Positions 9,325-32,459 of a DNA stretch of 64,000 bases are shown here, piece by piece. The notes beneath the pieces were generated by a model. It saw nothing but the letters and a program-made list of their open reading frames with translations. It had not been told where the DNA came from and searched no databases. The stretch's first letter is position 1; each line of letters opens with the position of its first letter. Made by a program: the position numbers and the translations under genes. Source of the DNA: Alphaproteobacteria bacterium (lineage in GTDB: Bacteria > Pseudomonadota > Alphaproteobacteria > Rickettsiales > SXRF01). The stretch covers positions 640-64,639 of the forward strand of contig JANYES010000028.1 of NCBI GenBank assembly GCA_025362975.1, given 5' to 3'.

Positions 9325-9444
9325 GCAGTCCCCCCTGAATTAAATTGTGGGGGAAGGTTAACATAAATTAACCATACTTGCAAGTATGAAAAAAGGTTAC
9401 CTGAAACCAATGTGTATTCTTAGTAACCAATTGATTATAAAAAA

Positions 9445-9848
9445 TTGCCAGACAGCCTATAAGCCGGGTTCTGTCCCTTATTGCTAAGGGGATGACCATT
9501 CATCTTGGACGCTGGTCGCCCAGCGCCTCACGCGACCTACCCGGATAACTAATGCGCGGAACACGCAGCTATCCCTATTTGGTCTTGCTCCCGGTGGGGT
9601 TTTCCCTGCCACGTGTGTTGCCACACGCGCGGTGCGCTCTTACTTTAAGCCCGTTCTGGTAAACCAGTCTGGGCCGCACCATTTCACCCTTACCTCATTT
9701 ATGAGGCGGTATATTTTCTGTGGCACTTTCCCTAAGGTTGCCCTCGGCGGGCGTTACCCGCCACCGTGTTCCGTGGAGCCCGGACTTTCCTCAAGCCACC
9801 CTTACCATAGGTTTGGGCTGCTCGCGGCCATCCGGCTGTCTGGCAGGT
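9445..9848 (-). ncRNA. rnpB: RNase P RNA, bacterial type A
   Basis: The reverse strand contains the universal GAGGAAAGTCCGGGCTCCA (P4) and ACAGAACCCGGCTTA elements. P1 pairing is GCCAGACAGCC (9447-9457) with GGCTGTCTGGC (9834-9844). Length is about 400 nt. Confidence 0.9.
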
Positions 9849-25808: not shown

Positions 25809-26804
25809 TTAAAGCTTTAAAGCTTTAATAAGATGTTCCAAATCCTGCGGTAATGGGCATTCGAATTTCATCGCTTCGCCGGTGGCGGGGTGGATCAGGC
25901 CTAGTTGCCTTGCGTGGAGCGCCTGACGTTCGAAGCCCATCAGCGCGTCGCGGGTTTCGCGGGGGAGGAATTTGTAGGCGTTGTTGCTCAGGCGGGTGCT
26001 TGGGGACTGGCCGTAGACGGGGTCTCCTAAGAGGGGGTGGCCGGTGTAGGCCATGTGGACGCGGATCTGGTGGGTGCGGCCGGTTTCGAGGCGGCATTCG
26101 ATAAGGGAAGCTAAGGGTGCGGTCATGTTGCCGGGGGTGAAGACTTCCAGCGTGCGATAATGGGTGACGGCTTCTTTGCCGCCGGATTTGACGACGGCCA
26201 TTTTCTGACGGTTGGCGGGGGAGCGGTTGATGTTGCCGGTGATGGTGCCTTGCGGGACTTTGAGAGCACCCCAGATGAGGGCGGTGTAGGTGCGTTTGAG
26301 AGAACGGTCTACGAGTTGGGCGGATAAGGCGATATGAGCGGCGTCGTGTTTGGCGACGACTAATAATCCGCTGGTTTCTTTGTCGATGCGGTGGACGATG
26401 CCGGGGCGAGCGACGCCGCCGATGCCCGACAGGCTATCGCCGCAATGGGCGAGCAGGGCGTTGACGAGGGTCATATCTGGATTGCCGGCACCCGGATGGA
26501 CGGTGAGGCCCGCTTGTTTGTTGATGATGAGCATGTGTTCGTCTTCGTAGACGATGTCGAGGGCGATATCTTGAGCCACGATGTGCGAGGGCACGATTTC
26601 GGGGATGGTGACGGTGAATTCCTGCCCGGTTTTAACTTTGCCGGAGCTGTCGTCGATCAGCTTACCGTTGCATGCGACGCAGCCTTGGGTTATCAAGTCC
26701 TGCAGACGGCTGCGGGAGAGATCGGGGATTTGCCCGGCTAAGAAGCGGTCGAGGCGGGTGCCGTTATCGGTCTCGCCAGCAGTGACAGTATATGAATCAG
26801 ACAT
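25809..26804 (-). CDS. rluD: RluA-family 23S rRNA pseudouridine synthase (RluD-like)
   Basis: 331 aa. N-terminal S4 domain (RLDRFL), catalytic HRIDKETSGLLVVAK, and GRTHQIRVH. Confidence 0.9.
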   Translation of the reverse strand: MSDSYTVTAGETDNGTRLDRFLAGQIPDLSRSRLQDLITQGCVACNGKLIDDSSGKVKTGQEFTVTIPEIVPSHIVAQDIALDIVYEDEHMLIINKQAGLTVHPGAGNPDMTLVNALLAHCGDSLSGIGGVARPGIVHRIDKETSGLLVVAKHDAAHIALSAQLVDRSLKRTYTALIWGALKVPQGTITGNINRSPANRQKMAVVKSGGKEAVTHYRTLEVFTPGNMTAPLASLIECRLETGRTHQIRVHMAYTGHPLLGDPVYGQSPSTRLSNNAYKFLPRETRDALMGFERQALHARQLGLIHPATGEAMKFECPLPQDLEHLIKALKL

Positions 26805-26818
26805 GTGGAATCCTTATT

Positions 26819-27154
26819 ATGGCCGCTAAAGCCCCTTTAAATAAACAAGATCGGGCAAACCCGCTAAGAACGCTAGTCATTTCTATGGGATTCGTACTTG
26901 TGGGCGGAACTATCATGCTGATGGGCGTGGTTTGGAAGAAGGTGAGCGCGGAGACGACCAAGATGAGGCTGGGCGCGGAATGCGCGGGCGGCAAGGTCGA
27001 TTTGAAGGGGCGTGGGCATGTCAGTAACACGCTTATTGAAAAGAATATTATGCGGGTTACGCTGGTGAAAGGCACTGGCGGTATGGAGGTGGTGTCGATG
27101 GATGTTTGCACGGGCCATGTGATGGGTAGCCTTGAGTTGGAAACCGATAAGTAG
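26819..27154 (+). CDS. hypothetical membrane-anchored protein
   Basis: From ATG 26819 (the track ORF begins at 26792): MAAKAPLNKQDRANPLRTLVISMGFVLVGGTIMLMGVVW..., a single TM. Divergent from rluD. Confidence 0.6.
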   Translation: MAAKAPLNKQDRANPLRTLVISMGFVLVGGTIMLMGVVWKKVSAETTKMRLGAECAGGKVDLKGRGHVSNTLIEKNIMRVTLVKGTGGMEVVSMDVCTGHVMGSLELETDK

Positions 27155-27325
27155 TAATTGGCTGATATTTAAACTTATATCTGGCGCGCTTTCGCGTGTG
27201 ACGTATTTGTGACATAGGCAAAAACGCTATGTTTTCACGTCATAAAACCTTAATTTGCGGCATTAATCCTTTTGTGAGATAGTAATGCTAGAGTTAATGG
27301 TAAATCAAGGAATGACCCTAGTAAT

Positions 27326-27889
27326 ATGAGTGAGCAGGACGATAACGAAACCTACGGCAAACACCCGGCGCTGCGGAATTTCAACCGCACGGGGTTTATG
27401 CTTAAGCATGTCGCTAAAAGCGTGCTTAAATGGGGGCTTGTCGGCGCGTTGGCCGGTGCTGTGGCGATTGCCGGCGCTACAATTATGCTGGGTGTCAGCC
27501 TCGGCGGCGCGACGCTTGGTATCGGTGCGTTGCTGACGCAGGTTCCCGTGATCGGGCCTGTCGTGACGGGCTTATTCTCCGGTGCGGCGTCCGCGGCGTT
27601 GCAAGGCGGCGTGATCGCGTCGATTGTCGGCCTTGTCGGCGGCGGTTTGATCGGCGGTGTGATGTCGGGCTCGGGCGCTTCGGAAGCGGCCGATGCGGAA
27701 GAAGACAAATTAGTCGCGAAATACCAGCAGGCGGAAGAACGCCGCCAGCGCTTAGCCGCCCTTGAAAGGCGCCGCGATGAACAGAAATTTGCAATGGATA
27801 AACAAGCTGCGGCACTTAGCAGCCCGGGGCAGAAAATCCCGATGGGCAAGCAGCAGGCGCAACACGGAGCAGGCCTCGCACACGCGTAA
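27326..27889 (+). CDS. glycine/alanine-rich multi-TM protein with charged coiled-coil-like tail
   Basis: 187 aa. About 100 residues of GxxxG/A-type repeats (WGLVGALAGAVAIAGATIMLGVSLGGATLGIGALL...GLVGGGLIGGVMSG), then EEDKLVAKYQQAEERRQRLAALERRRDEQ. Confidence 0.75.
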   Translation: MSEQDDNETYGKHPALRNFNRTGFMLKHVAKSVLKWGLVGALAGAVAIAGATIMLGVSLGGATLGIGALLTQVPVIGPVVTGLFSGAASAALQGGVIASIVGLVGGGLIGGVMSGSGASEAADAEEDKLVAKYQQAEERRQRLAALERRRDEQKFAMDKQAAALSSPGQKIPMGKQQAQHGAGLAHA

Positions 27890-27935
27890 AAACGGTGCTG
27901 GATATGGAATTTAACGTTAAAAGGTAGGTAGTGTC

Positions 27936-28292
27936 ATGGAAGGTATTTTGAATTCGGTTAAAGGCATGTTCATCAAGGAAGACGGCGGTATCAACTGGCG
28001 CACCATTCTTGGGATGGGCGTTGGCGCGGTTGCCGGTGTGTTCATCCTTCCTGAGCTTGGCATGGCGATGGGCGGCCCGGTGCTTGCCGGTGCGCTTGGC
28101 GCGGTGGCCGGTCTTGCCGGTTCGCAGCTTCTGGGAATGGTGATGCCGGGGGATAAACCGGCCGCTGAAGAAGCGCCCGCAGGCGCCGGTGGCCCTGCTC
28201 TCCAGCCGCCCGCACGCGGTGTCGGCCCCGTCGTTCCGCCGCAAGGCCTGCCGCAGGGCGCACGCCCCGATCCGCGCGCCGCTGGTCGTTAA
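27936..28292 (+). CDS. glycine/alanine-rich membrane protein with proline-rich tail
   Basis: 118 aa. ILGMGVGAVAGVFILPELGMAMGGPVLAGALGAVAGLAGSQLLGMV, then a P/A/G-rich C-terminus. Confidence 0.7.
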   Translation: MEGILNSVKGMFIKEDGGINWRTILGMGVGAVAGVFILPELGMAMGGPVLAGALGAVAGLAGSQLLGMVMPGDKPAAEEAPAGAGGPALQPPARGVGPVVPPQGLPQGARPDPRAAGR

Positions 28293-28437
28293 CAGTTTGG
28301 GAGGGCCGTTGATTTAACGGCATAATCCCAGTTTCCACGCTGTAACAAAACCTTAACTTGTTTGTCTTGGCATCTGTGTCATAATAACAGCATAGTAATA
28401 GCTAGTTATTGAAATCGTAGAACTTTTTGAGGAATTT

Positions 28438-29157
28438 ATGGCAGACGCAATCAACCACGATGGTCCAAGCACGGTAGCAACCGTAGGCTCCAAGGCCGTA
28501 AAATTCGGTCTTCTGGGCGGGCTTGCAGCCATTGTCCTTCCAATACTGATCGGCGGTGCGGCAATTTTAGTTGCCGGTCCGATGATCGCAGCGGGCACGG
28601 TGGGCGGTATCGCCGGCGGCATCGCCGTTGGTGCCTTGGGGCTTGCCGGTGCGCTTGCAACGTGGGGCTTAGGTTCTGCGGGTGCGATTATCGGCGGCAC
28701 GTTCGGCATTCTTAAAGGCAGCGAAAAGGTCAGCGCAGAAAACAGCGCGTTCCGTTCGCGTGTTGCCGCTAAAATGCGCGGTGACGAAAACAAAGATCAG
28801 AAAAACTTCAATGACGGCGAAAACAAAGGTCTTGAAGAAGGCTACCAGCTCGCGACGCGTGATATGGGCGGCCAGATTGAACAGCGCGAACAGGCAGCCT
28901 TCCAAAAAGGCCAGGAAGTTGTCGTTCAGCAAATTCAGGAACAGATGATGAAGGCCGCACAGGCTGAACAGGGCGGCGCAGCTCCGGCTGTTGCAGCTGC
29001 TGTCGGCGCTGGCGCACTTGCATCCGCTGCCGTGGAACAGAAATCCGAGAAAAAATTCGCGGACGGTGTGGCCAAGGCGAATTGTGAATGCAAAGCCGAA
29101 GCGGTGCTGCACGAACGCGAAGCAAAAGCGCACGCGCCTGCTCATCACCACGTTTAA
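28438..29157 (+). CDS. glycine/alanine-rich multi-TM protein with Q/E-rich tail and His-rich C-terminus
   Basis: 239 aa with a GAGGAA RBS. SKAVKFGLLGGLAA... parallels KSVLKWGLVGALAG... of ORF 27326. The tail contains QREQAAFQKGQEVVVQQIQEQMMKAAQAEQ and ends HAPAHHHV. Confidence 0.8.
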   Translation: MADAINHDGPSTVATVGSKAVKFGLLGGLAAIVLPILIGGAAILVAGPMIAAGTVGGIAGGIAVGALGLAGALATWGLGSAGAIIGGTFGILKGSEKVSAENSAFRSRVAAKMRGDENKDQKNFNDGENKGLEEGYQLATRDMGGQIEQREQAAFQKGQEVVVQQIQEQMMKAAQAEQGGAAPAVAAAVGAGALASAAVEQKSEKKFADGVAKANCECKAEAVLHEREAKAHAPAHHHV

Positions 29158-29187
29158 TCACGTAACACCCAGCAATAGGATAGCCTT

Positions 29188-29610
29188 ATGGCTTTCTGGC
29201 GATTACCGAGTTGGAGCCTAGCGAAAAAGATTCACATGGTCGGGGCGCTTGCCGCTGGTGCTGTAGCTCTGCCATTCATCGCCGGTTCCTTCCGCTCCGC
29301 CCGCGCTTACGATGAAACCACCAACGCTCCCGCGCCGAAAGATTTAAGCGATACGCTGCCGCCGCTACTGGATTTCGTTCCCAATACGCCGGGCATGGAG
29401 CCTGCCGGTGCCAATACGATGATGGGCATGAAACCGGTCGAAGGGGCGCTTGCCAAGAAAATTAAGATGCAACGCGCCGGTGCGAGCGCCGGACCGGATG
29501 TCAGCTCGCCTAATATTACCAACCCGGCAGGTCTTTCGATGATCGACGGTAAGCATGTGCAGGACCTCAATAAAGAAGCGTCCATGCCGAGCGCCAGCGC
29601 CGCTATTTAA
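29188..29610 (+). CDS. hypothetical single-TM (signal-anchor) protein, P/A/M-rich
   Basis: 140 aa. IHMVGALAAGAVALPFIAGSF is the only hydrophobic segment. Last gene of the cluster. Confidence 0.65.
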   Translation: MAFWRLPSWSLAKKIHMVGALAAGAVALPFIAGSFRSARAYDETTNAPAPKDLSDTLPPLLDFVPNTPGMEPAGANTMMGMKPVEGALAKKIKMQRAGASAGPDVSSPNITNPAGLSMIDGKHVQDLNKEASMPSASAAI

Positions 29611-29662: not shown

Positions 29663-29690
29663 TTGACACGCCCTTTTTTCTTTGTATATT
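29663..29690 (+). promoter_or_regulatory. candidate sigma70-type promoter of rpsD
   Basis: TTGACA (29663-29668), a 16-nt spacer, then TATATT (29685-29690), about 60 nt upstream of the rpsD GTG. Confidence 0.5.
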
Positions 29691-29751: not shown

Positions 29752-30372
29752 GTGACCAAACGTCTTGATTGCAAATATAAGATCAGCCGCCGCCTGGGCG
29801 TAAACCTCTGGGGCAATGCGAAAGACCCGTTCAACAAACGCGGTTATGCTCCGGGCCAGCACGGCGCGGGCGCAAAACGCAAAAAATCTTCGGATTACGG
29901 CACGCAGCTGCGCGAAAAGCAGAAACTGCGCGGCTACTATGGCAACATCACCGAGCGCCAGTTCCGCAACATCTACCAGAAGGCTTCGCGCCTGAAGGGT
30001 GACACGGGCGAGAATCTCATCGGCCTGCTCGAAAGCCGCCTCGACACCGTCGTGTACCGCATGGGCCTCGTGCCTACGCCGTTCGCGGCTCGCCAGTTCG
30101 TTAGCCACGGCCATATCCGTGTGAACGGCAAAAAAGTCAACATCCCGAGCTATCAGGTTCAAGCTGACGACATCATCGAAGTAAAAGAAAAATCGAAGCA
30201 GATGGCCGTTGTGCTCGAAATCGTGCAGAACCCGGAACGTTCGGTTCCCGATTACATCGAATTCGACAACAAGGAACTCAAAGGCAAATACATCCGCCAG
30301 CCGAAACTGGCCGAAGTGCCGTTCCCGGTTGTGATGCAGCCGAACTTCGTCATCGAATATTACTCACGCTAA
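29752..30372 (+). CDS. rpsD: 30S ribosomal protein S4
   Basis: 206 aa, GTG start. [14 protein letters not shown]...PGQHG...[16 protein letters not shown]... Confidence 0.95.
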
Positions 30373-30441: not shown

Positions 30442-31692
30442 ATGGATATTGAGAAAGTGGCGTTCGAGACGCTGATGACGTTGCAGGACAAGGCGCATGA
30501 TGAAGGCTGGGGCGCGTTTGAAACCATCACGCATGTGACTGAGCCGGGATATCCGGAGATTACCGAGCGTTTCGAGAACGCCCGCGAGGGGCTGATGCGC
30601 GACATGCAGCGCGAGTGGGACGGGTTTGCGGCTACGCTCGATGATAAGCAGAAGGGGATTTACGATAGGCTTTGGGAAAACCGCAACCGTTTGCGCGATG
30701 AGGCGTTGCCGGAGGATGATCGCGATCTGGTGAGTGAGGATACCAACCGGTGGCAACAGTATTTCGAGCGGTCACTTCGTTATGAGCAGCTGGAGCCGTA
30801 TCGCGAGCTGGAACATCGCGACAGGCATATCGATGGTTTACGCAAGGATGAGGCGAACCCTGAGATAATGCGTATCGACCGCGAGGCGAAAGAGAGTGTG
30901 CATGAGCGGATCTGCCTCGATCTTCCCAAGGGGATGACGCAGGCGGAGGCGATTGTTGTGTCCAACCTGATGAATCAGGCGCTGCTGAAATATAATAACC
31001 GCATGACGCAGGTTTTGATTGCGGGCAAGGAGGATCAGGAGGGCGTGGATGAGATCAGCGCCGGGTTGATTCGCCGCGCGGGGCGCTCGCATACGTACCT
31101 GACGTCGGTGTATGATAGGGATAGCAACCAGTTACAGTTTTACTCGGATAATCGCGACAATTTGATTACGGGCGAGTTCGATGGGGCGCGATTGAAGCAG
31201 TGCATCAAGAATATGGCGAGGGATTTGCGCCACGGCTGGAAGGTGGTGGAGGTTACCGATTTGCTCACGGGCGAAAAACAGAAGGTGGCTAAGAAATCCA
31301 GCTCGTTCGATTTGTCGGACACCAAAGAAGGGTCCAGCGCGGAAATGTTTTTTAACCTGATGGCGGAAGTGATGAACACTACGAACTGGTCTTCGACGGT
31401 GTTTACCATGCGGGCGGCGGCGGAAACATTGAGCGATGAAGGCACGGTGGCGCTTAGCGCGTTTGCGGACGATGCCACTATCGTTAATAAAACCTATTTG
31501 GCGCTGGCCGACGATGACCGCAGGCGCACGGCGAAGTATTTCGCGTTTGAGGATTTTCTGGAAAATGCGCCGAGGGAGCCGGAAATACAGCATGACGGCT
31601 GCATCGCCATGAGTATGGATATCGCGAAGGTAATTCTGGGCGATATCTTGCAGATTCCCGAGTTTAAAGCACCGGGGCAGGGGCGGGCTTAG
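30442..31692 (+). CDS. hypothetical acidic soluble protein (orphan)
   Basis: 416-aa ORF, D/E/R-rich, with no TM segment and no recognised motif. Confidence 0.75.
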   Translation: MDIEKVAFETLMTLQDKAHDEGWGAFETITHVTEPGYPEITERFENAREGLMRDMQREWDGFAATLDDKQKGIYDRLWENRNRLRDEALPEDDRDLVSEDTNRWQQYFERSLRYEQLEPYRELEHRDRHIDGLRKDEANPEIMRIDREAKESVHERICLDLPKGMTQAEAIVVSNLMNQALLKYNNRMTQVLIAGKEDQEGVDEISAGLIRRAGRSHTYLTSVYDRDSNQLQFYSDNRDNLITGEFDGARLKQCIKNMARDLRHGWKVVEVTDLLTGEKQKVAKKSSSFDLSDTKEGSSAEMFFNLMAEVMNTTNWSSTVFTMRAAAETLSDEGTVALSAFADDATIVNKTYLALADDDRRRTAKYFAFEDFLENAPREPEIQHDGCIAMSMDIAKVILGDILQIPEFKAPGQGRA

Positions 31693-31781: not shown

Positions 31782-32459
31782 TTACTTCTTCTTCGGCTCG
31801 GCCTTGGTGGTCAGGGTGACCTGAGCACCGGCGAGCAGCTTGCCGGTCAAGGTGGACTCGTCGCGGTCGTCTTTCGACTGGGCGACTTCCTTGTTGGCCG
31901 ACTTGGCCGTCAGTTCGATGCCCTTCCAGGCATAGTCCCCGCCGTTGTTGGCGAAGCTGACGGTCGTGCCGGTGACTTTGTAGTCGAACGGCTTCTTCGA
32001 GACGACCTTGATGTACACGTCTTCCGAGGCGTACAGGCCGTCTTCACGTTTCTCGAAATCCTTGCCCGCCAGCTTGACCTTCTCGCGAAGGCCTTTGATG
32101 GTGAGCGTGACTTCGTCGCCTTTGTTGATCGGGCCGGGTAACGAGCTGTTGTCGAAGGTGCGAATGGCAACGACCTTGCCGTTGACCTTCGCTTCCACGT
32201 TGACACCGCGCCATTGGCACACGGTGAGCGTGCCGCCGGTGAAGGTGACCGTGTTGGTCTTCTCGTCGACGGTGTAGTCCTTCTTGCCGTTGCCGGTGCC
32301 GATGCCGATCATGACACCTTCGGAGAGCCAGAGGCCGCCGGGGCGGACCTCGAACTCGAGCTTGGACAGCTTGACCTTGTCGACCTTCTCGTCATCCGCC
32401 GCCTTGAGGTTGGCGGTGAGGGAGGTGGCGAGGGCCATGAACAGGATGGCGTACTTCAT
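31782..32459 (-). CDS. secreted hypothetical protein, strongly GC3-rich compositional outlier
   Basis: 225 aa. Signal peptide MKYAILFMALATSLTANLKA, AGGAG RBS, beta-rich K/T/V composition. By hand count about nine in ten codons end in G/C. Confidence 0.75.
   Translation of the reverse strand: MKYAILFMALATSLTANLKAADDEKVDKVKLSKLEFEVRPGGLWLSEGVMIGIGTGNGKKDYTVDEKTNTVTFTGGTLTVCQWRGVNVEAKVNGKVVAIRTFDNSSLPGPINKGDEVTLTIKGLREKVKLAGKDFEKREDGLYASEDVYIKVVSKKPFDYKVTGTTVSFANNGGDYAWKGIELTAKSANKEVAQSKDDRDESTLTGKLLAGAQVTLTTKAEPKKK

Follow-up and report, generated by a model that had tools for sequence, protein, structure and literature searches.

A linked cluster of four glycine/alanine-rich, predicted membrane proteins upstream of rpsD in an uncultured alphaproteobacterial group

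What do four small consecutive genes of no known family do between two housekeeping genes, and do they belong to one system? The question is raised by a stretch of 64,000 nucleotides assigned to an Alphaproteobacteria bacterium (contig JANYES010000028.1 of assembly GCA_025362975.1, positions 640 to 64,639), which is the window analysed here. An earlier note, made from the letters alone, had described in it a cluster of glycine/alanine-rich membrane proteins with polar tails. As the most probable account, which is held tentatively, we suggest that these proteins, named A to D here, are subunits of one lineage-specific inner-membrane assembly, encoded by two co-regulated operons and probably structural in role. 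The genes, taken from the list of open reading frames (ORFs), and their immediate flanks are as follows:

27326–27889, plus strand, gene A, 187 aa
27936–28292, plus strand, gene B, 118 aa
28438–29157, plus strand, gene C, 239 aa
29188–29610, plus strand, gene D, 140 aa
25809–26804, minus strand, rluD, left flank of the cluster
29752–30372, plus strand, rpsD, right flank of the cluster

Reality, distribution and linkage of the four genes

The four plus-strand genes lie between rluD and rpsD with exactly the coordinates and sizes that the earlier note had given. Public gene callers report the same four genes on five contigs of identical sequence; the window is identical to contig JAYUNH010000015.1 of the metagenome-assembled genome (MAG) GCA_043761865.1 and is also present in rock and sediment metagenomes. 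Each of the genes is preceded by a Shine-Dalgarno-like sequence. Orthologues in related contigs are 40–55% identical, while rpsD of those contigs is about 85% identical. The median ratio of non-synonymous to synonymous substitution rates (dN/dS) is 0.22 for A, 0.28 for B, 0.19 for C and 0.23 for D, with the synonymous rate saturated for all four, and 0.05 for rpsD. A–D are therefore real genes under purifying selection and not chance ORFs of a GC-rich genome. Antisense ORFs on the minus strand (for example 27352–27849 and 28669–29151) were rejected as genes; they are by-products of GC-rich coding sequence, because the conserved motifs, the in-frame insertions and deletions and the low dN/dS all sit in the plus-strand frames.

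A search of 5.8 billion clustered proteins returned 14 homologues of A (37–54% identity) and six of C, and nine matches were obtained for D, the protein of the window included. When a profile of the C tail was run exhaustively with HMMER against 1.84 billion representatives, no more than 31 proteins came up at E<=1e-3. They are without exception unnamed metagenomic proteins of 124–255 aa; in those whose sequence was read, the matching region is C-terminal and preceded by a hydrophobic stretch. Ten of the more distant ones were looked up, and each is a metagenomic cluster with one member that has no functional name. A scan of one genome per GTDB species yielded two MAGs, both titled 'Alphaproteobacteria bacterium', and a scan of Joint Genome Institute (JGI) metagenomes added four further loci. 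Outside this one set of contigs, no member of the families of A, C or D was found.

The order of the genes is kept over the whole of this range. In every contig that is long enough (loci L006, L008, L010 and L013–L019), A-(B)-C-D lies directly upstream of rpsD, and L013, at about 30% identity, still keeps A-C-D in this place. The most distant homologues of C that could be placed are those of L023 and L024 (C-family E-values of 8e-9 and 3e-4). L023 reads rluD, a 143-aa ORF, A, B, C, a D-like gene, rpsD and mraZ, and L024 reads purQ, A, C, D, rpsD and mraZ, so that its left neighbour differs. The expectation in the earlier note that the four genes travel together is thus borne out in 13 independent relatives at 30–55% identity, with B sometimes missing; the note had also named unlinked genes in relatives among the findings that would speak against a joint system, and the linkage of A, C and D is kept throughout. 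As B is absent from L013, L014 and L024, the core of the cluster is A-C-D, with B as an accessory. Around the cluster, the related loci carry only housekeeping genes (pur, rluD, rpsD and the dcw genes of cell division and cell wall). A–D are found only in one uncultured alphaproteobacterial group, where their locus is a fixed part of a housekeeping region and is inherited vertically.

Architecture of the predicted proteins

The uncharged stretches measure 84 aa in A (residues 36–119) and 70 aa in C; B has two, of 17 and 23 aa, and that of D is 19 aa long. Glycine, alanine and serine make up 35–62% of these stretches, mostly 45–62%. Compared with shuffles within each segment, pairs of glycines are enriched at spacings of 4, 7–8 and 11 across the A, B and C families, and pairs at a spacing of 2 are depleted in the families of A and C, while that of B shows no such depletion. 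The z values reach +3.8 and −6.8, inflated by the relatedness of the sequences, and the direction at spacings 4 and 7 is identical in the three families. Such spacings mark glycines that lie on one face of an alpha-helix (GxxxG, glycine zipper), beyond what composition alone would give, and the small-residue repeats described in the earlier note are confirmed in this form.

Protein A opens with a conserved, basic N-terminus (KHPALRNFNRTGFMxKHVxKGxLKWG), which is followed by a core of two Gly/Ala-rich hydrophobic arms of 30–42 aa each, with a short polar or proline-containing turn between them. The tail is a conserved charged helix rich in E, R, K and Q (EAADAEEDRLVAKYEQxEARKxRMxALERRRDEQxFAMERQ), and the C-terminal end is disordered, finishing with G-H-A-H-A in many orthologues. 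AlphaFold2 (AF2) models A as a helical hairpin (residues 21–70 and 77–165), with confidence in the tail helix only. In terms of the frequency of the most common residue, conservation is about 0.8 in the N-terminus and about 0.8 in the tail helix, and only 0.4–0.5 in the hydrophobic core, where there are many insertions and deletions.

Protein C follows the same plan. Its conserved N-terminus reads ADPINHDGxSTVATVGSKAVKxG, in which the H-D of the INHD motif is invariant, and its Gly/Ala-rich core varies in length (70 aa here, 43–88 aa across the family). The tail helix carries a polar GxxxGxxxG(Y) repeat (NDGExKGLQEGY; G127-x3-G131-x3-G135 in the window) together with FQKGQExVVQQIQ. In distant members the repeat takes the form AxxxGxxxGxxxGxxxG, with up to five small residues in register, and reads AEMAGMQQGYMMGFQEGQQ. 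The long helix is followed by an A/Q linker that varies and then by a C-terminal helix that is conserved (KCECKAEAIIxERE), and most orthologues have a CxC (KCECKAEA) close to the C-terminus; the tail as a whole is Q/E-rich and finishes HAPAHHHV. The G-H-A-H-A end of A and the CxC and H-D of C may be metal-binding or redox-sensitive residues. In the AF2 model of C, the last transmembrane (TM) helix runs on as one helix over residues 80–179, and the mean predicted local distance difference test score (pLDDT) per ten residues exceeds 90 across about residues 121–170. For both A and C, the last membrane helix is modelled to pass straight into a helix of 85–100 residues. Conservation in C is about 0.8 in the N-terminus, 0.65 in the tail helix and 0.4–0.5 in the core, again with insertions and deletions.

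The remaining two proteins differ from this plan. B has a conserved N-terminus (MEGLLNSIKGMFVKEDGGIKW) and two Gly-rich helices, including GMGVGAVAG and GALGAVAGLAG, which are arranged as a hairpin joined at a conserved LP turn and followed by a Pro-rich tail. D has a single TM helix (residues 17–35), then RSxRR, an acidic Pro-rich stretch (DEDNVPMPKDLxDPLPPVLExTP) and a conserved C-terminal end (GVSAIDGKHVQDL). D is P/A/M-rich overall, and the extension before its TM helix ranges from about 15 to about 165 aa among relatives. The tails of A, B and C and the single TM helix of D thus agree with what the earlier note had described.

That note had also taken A and C for paralogues, and profile comparison points the same way. 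Alignment of A with C by hhalign gave 94% probability over 21 columns, and alignment of A with a wider alignment of C gave 96% (E of 3.9e-9) over 30 columns; the match sits exactly at the start of the first hydrophobic (TM) helix. No relation was detected by hhalign between B and D, B and A or B and C, and neither B nor D shows a detectable relation to A and C. An origin of A and C by tandem duplication is supported by these matches, and an ancient tandem duplication of a promoter-plus-gene unit would be the simplest history because the profile match, the shared design and the homologous promoters described below agree.

None of A–D reached a model cutoff in Pfam or NCBIfam, with the Pfam hmmscan listed at E<=1. 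This includes the curated cutoffs of the Pfam families Gly-zipper_YMGG, Gly-zipper_Omp, Transgly_assoc, DUF456 and YtxH. The best sub-cutoff Pfam matches are those of B to DUF456 (13.1 bits, E=0.12, cutoff 29.4) and to MccV (10.9 bits, E=0.72, cutoff 27), and both are compositional. In PHROGs, only A gave marginal matches, the best being 'endolysin' (E=0.002) over the low-complexity, coiled region; no holin family of PHROGs was matched by A–D, and there are no phage genes nearby. PADLOC gave no match at E<=0.1. Profile searches of PDB sequences with A and C returned at best E values of 0.18–0.59, to TM helices of similar composition (PsbX, an Lhcr protein and 'Protein LRC'), which are chance matches, and Foldseek of the C model, itself of low confidence outside the long helix, gave no match in the PDB at E<=10. 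With Pfam, NCBIfam, PHROGs and PADLOC, A–D showed no domain of an enzyme, a transporter, a phage or a defence system. The earlier note had recognised no known family, and these searches uphold it: as far as its sequences can tell, the cluster is new at the family level and is not assigned to a kind of system.

Predicted operons, promoters and flanking genes

All four genes are preceded by AT-rich spacers (GC 0.36–0.47, against 0.57–0.66 in coding sequence), as the claim in the earlier note of an AT-rich leader for each gene requires. However, only A and C have long leaders with promoters (171 nt at GC 0.36 and 145 nt at GC 0.38, respectively), whereas B begins 46 nt after A, with its own Shine-Dalgarno site, and D begins 30 nt after C. 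For this reason we read the cluster as two predicted operons, A-B and C-D, and not as four units. Their upstream elements in the window are:

27199–27214, plus strand, direct repeat TGACG-N6-TGACA (period of 11 bp), on the upstream side of the A promoter
27239–27283, plus strand, predicted promoter of the A-B operon, from an alignment of ten loci
27239–27257, plus strand, shared box of the A promoter, GTCATAAAACCTTAATTTG, overlapping the −35 element
27255–27260, plus strand, −35 element of the A promoter, TTGCGG, followed by a 17-nt spacer
27278–27283, plus strand, −10 hexamer of the A promoter, within the extended −10 element TGaGATAGT
28341–28385, plus strand, predicted promoter of the C-D operon, a homologue of that of A-B
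28341–28360, plus strand, shared box of the C promoter, TGTAACAAAACCTTAACTTG, overlapping the −35 element
28358–28363, plus strand, −35 element of the C promoter, TTGTTT, followed by a 16-nt spacer
28380–28385, plus strand, −10 hexamer of the C promoter, within the extended −10 element TGTCATAAT

Across ten loci, the block upstream of A reads CGTCAyAAAACCTTAATTTGCrG, about 14 nt and TGcGATAGT, which we interpret as a −35 element (TTGCrG), a 17-nt spacer and an extended −10 element. The block upstream of C reads TGTAACAAAACCTTAACTTGTTTG, about 12 nt and then TGTCATAAT. Both blocks are invariant or nearly so across the ten loci despite saturated synonymous sites. The box shared by the two promoters is about 19 nt long and does not occur elsewhere in the loci. 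Its 13-mer AAAVCTTAAYTTG is found upstream of A or C in 23 of the 24 fetched loci, and these have no copy in any other place; it stands before both genes in 20 loci and before one of them in three (L013, L022 and L024), and the window has exactly two copies. In L023 and L024 the boxes of A and C converge, both being ATTGTCACAAAACCTTAAYTTG or close to it. From this pattern we infer the promoter function of the two blocks and a factor that would read the shared box. As a control, the rpsD promoter was compared and is conserved to a similar degree, which suggests that this clade keeps strong promoters well and that the promoters of A and C belong in that class.

Several known regulatory sites were compared with these blocks. 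The CtrA box is TTAA-N7-TTAAC; the box of C (GTAA-N7-TTAAC) is one mismatch off, that of A reads GTCA-N7-TTAAT, and neither is called a CtrA site. Since only the first of the two comes within one mismatch, no regulator is named. An EcfG-type stress-sigma promoter has the form GGAAC-N16-CGTT, and neither EcfG-type nor sigma-54 or LexA-type motifs fit the promoters of A and C. The direct repeat upstream of the A promoter (consensus TGACR-N6-RTGACA) is conserved throughout the nine close loci, survives by half in L013, which is more distant, and is missing in the distant L023 and L024; in alignment A7 its columns T45, G46, A47 and C48 are invariant and A58, C59 and A60 nearly invariant. It looks like a putative site for a winged-helix response regulator of the OmpR/PhoB type, which would be the binding protein.

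Two further conserved segments were observed in the leaders of this region. The leader of C (28386–28437) has conserved blocks in close relatives, namely AGCATGGT at the predicted start and TAATTATTTGAT. The promoter of rpsD (29663–29690, plus strand) is near-consensus, TTGACA-16-TATATT, and the block behind it (TTTTTCTTTGTATATTTCACCTCCCT) does not vary within the clade. Conservation extends past the −10 element into the transcript start, and this stretch might be a regulatory leader.

The flanks of the cluster contain some additional ORFs. Between rluD and A, overlapping the start of rluD, there is a 120-aa single-TM ORF (26792–27154, plus strand), which has about 52–56% identity in five relatives (L006, L010, L015, L017 and L018), no match in L008, L013, L014 and L016, and a weak Pfam match to DUF6476 (E=0.12). 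This ORF probably encodes a small membrane protein in its own right, outside the A–D cluster. On the 3' side of rpsD, two orphan ORFs are followed by mraZ and the dcw cluster. These orphans, of 416 aa (30442–31692, plus strand) and 225 aa (31782–32459, minus strand, with an N-terminus like a signal peptide), match no family. The slot between rpsD and mraZ varies among relatives, being empty or holding a 515-aa ORF or ParE/RHH toxin-antitoxin pairs (L008 and L010), and it looks like an insertion hot spot. Toxin-antitoxin pairs of the BrnT-toxin type lie between a TPP-enzyme gene and rluD in some relatives only (L008 7702–8188 and L023 4694–5189) and not in the window, which gives further evidence of plastic flanks while A-C-D-rpsD stays whole. 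Elsewhere in the window, the sole Rfam family found is a bacterial class A RNase P RNA (9444–9843, minus strand, 311.8 bits).

A possible membrane scaffold and its alternatives

The assembly that we tentatively favour can be sketched as follows. The operons A-B and C-D would have arisen by the ancient duplication and would be co-regulated. A and C would insert into the membrane via their long Gly/Ala-rich helical hairpins, and the glycines on one face would let these helices pack tightly and self-associate. The last membrane helix of each would continue as a long rigid cytoplasmic helix, and the two cytoplasmic helices, E/R/K-rich in A and carrying the polar GxxxG repeat in the Q-rich tail of C, might form a pair. 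Along with the conserved N-terminal motifs, this pair would present a specific, conserved contact surface. B would be a small hairpin accessory subunit and D a bitopic subunit with a Pro-rich, extended tail. Such an assembly would most likely be a membrane-organising scaffold or anchor and not an enzyme, a toxin or a precisely built channel. We infer membrane insertion and topology, physical contacts among the proteins, a role as scaffold and the process that the assembly would serve.

Some observations weigh against this picture. The membrane parts of A and C are modelled by AF2 at low confidence (mean pLDDT of 61.5 and 67.9), and B is dispensable in three lineages. Because the synteny of rpsD and mraZ is kept too, part of the conserved linkage inside this one clade may simply be gene order passed on vertically. 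Listings restricted to RNA sequencing contained no run for the locus, a listing of all run types gave DNA runs only, and a literature search on the assembly accessions found no paper. 'Scaffold' may be regarded as a default reading of this modelled anatomy.

Three other accounts of A–D have to be weighed against a scaffold. It is rather unlikely that A, C or both form an oligomeric channel or pore, with the zipper helices lining it and the cytoplasmic helices bundled beneath, as in MscL. MscL is laid out as an N-terminal helix, TM1, a loop, TM2 and a C-terminal helical bundle, and glycine zippers are common in channel-forming helices such as those of MscL, KcsA and VacA. The order modelled for A and C, a short N-terminal segment or helix, a Gly/Ala-rich hydrophobic hairpin and a long C-terminal cytoplasmic helix, resembles this layout, and their glycines fall on one helix face. 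However, unlike pore-lining helices, the membrane regions of A and C show the lowest conservation of all parts, and their lengths differ by tens of residues (43–88 aa in the C core, 30–42 aa in the A arms). The hydrophobic arms, about twice the length of one TM pass, are too long for single passes, and matches to MscL in Pfam or NCBIfam, or to any channel family in Pfam, are absent. Since the polar ends are tightly selected and the membrane part only for composition and periodicity, a self-associating anchor or scaffold fits better than a pore with a defined lining. Among the roles that the earlier note had put forward (pore, scaffold or organelle coat), it is the precise pore that this anatomy speaks against. 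The possibility that A–D are independent small membrane-stabilising or stress proteins (of YtxH, Gly-zipper, DUF456 or Transglycosylase-associated-like type), co-located and co-regulated but forming no complex, also seems unlikely to us. It would agree with the small size, low complexity and lack of domains of the four proteins, with the weak DUF456 match of B, with the loss of B in some lineages and with the putative response-regulator site upstream of A. It is less easily reconciled with the strict linkage and order of A, C and D over deep divergence or with the specific, highly conserved polar motifs, which suggest defined partners, and no EcfG-type promoter is visible in the conserved upstream blocks.

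We consider it very improbable that the cluster encodes a membrane-active toxin, either a bacteriocin with B as a class II microcin-like peptide accompanied by an immunity protein, or holin-like lysis proteins. B is G/A-rich, its core stands behind a short N-terminal segment ending in GG, as in class II microcins (MccV, PF17508), and its weak MccV match begins just after the conserved 'DGG'. Yet the score is far under the Pfam cutoff, and the residues at −4 and −8 before the GG are E and M, which do not fit the consensus of a double-glycine leader. No gene for a peptidase-containing ABC exporter or a membrane-fusion protein lies within 20 kb, where the neighbourhood is housekeeping only, likewise in the relatives. 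The fixed core-genome position in all relatives, together with purifying selection, is unlike the strain-variable loci of bacteriocins, and the searches of PHROGs and PADLOC give neither of these variants any support beyond the marginal endolysin match of A. The bacteriocin and holin readings were rejected on the fixed housekeeping locus, the lack of an exporter or phage gene nearby and the unmet leader consensus.

Comparison with known membrane systems gives likenesses of design and no homology. The magnetosome operon mamGFDC consists of four genes for small, abundant magnetosome membrane proteins, several with Gly/Leu/Ala-repeat segments and polar tails. A–D resemble MamGFDC and Mms6 in being four small membrane proteins with Gly-rich hydrophobic segments and polar tails, but no mam or mms genes were found in the window or the related loci and no sequence similarity was detected. 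ATP-synthase b subunits have a membrane helix that continues into a long stalk helix, and the membrane helix of C is modelled to run into a long stalk in the same way. The dimerisation helices of FliH/YscL carry a glycine repeat that reads AxxxG(xxxG)mxxxA (PMC2674601), and the polar tail helix of C, with G at every fourth position, matches this pattern only, without implying homology. The repeat of C is short, Pfam matches to FliH, YscL and ATP-synt_B are lacking, and no ATPase or type III secretion genes occur in the neighbourhood of A–D.

A bolder version of the idea, which we regard as improbable, is that of a bacterial membrane-shaping system. By analogy, the overlong Gly/Ala-zipper hairpins of A, B and C might wedge into the cytoplasmic membrane and oligomerise like Mic10 or reticulons, while the stalks and D would hold the assembly. 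A reticulon domain consists of two long hairpins, and the two hydrophobic arms of A, of 30–42 aa around a short polar turn, are reminiscent of it. Hairpins of Mic10, the MICOS core subunit, carry GxGxGxG and GxxxG motifs, oligomerise and bend membranes (PMC4431669). Mic10 is a protein of about 10 kDa with two TM helices, and B, of 118 aa, has two Gly-rich helices, with GMGVGAVAG and GALGAVAGLAG, in a predicted hairpin. However, neither Mic10 nor reticulon models are matched by A–D in Pfam (E<=1), the long cytoplasmic helices modelled for A and C have no counterpart in Mic10, and there is no Mic60 gene or membrane-organelle gene near the cluster. If this version were true, the inner membrane of an uncultured alphaproteobacterial lineage would be curved or divided into compartments, and the principle of Mic10 and reticulons would have been invented independently in the class of bacteria that gave rise to mitochondria.

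Lineage-specific clusters of membrane proteins without an assigned function are known in good number, and A–D are a solid annotation-level discovery and not a surprise that would answer an open question. Their practical value is limited for now because the clade is uncultured and known only from rock, sediment and other environmental metagenomes. If A–D form one assembly, as we tentatively suggest, they would represent a new set of families of membrane proteins of unusual design, in which the hydrophobic Gly/Ala core, bounded by conserved polar ends, is under constraint for composition and helical periodicity but not for sequence or length. Cores of this kind are believed to promote close packing of helices and oligomerisation, and at times the bending of membranes, and the clear operon structure and the shared promoter box would make such an assembly an accessible bacterial model.

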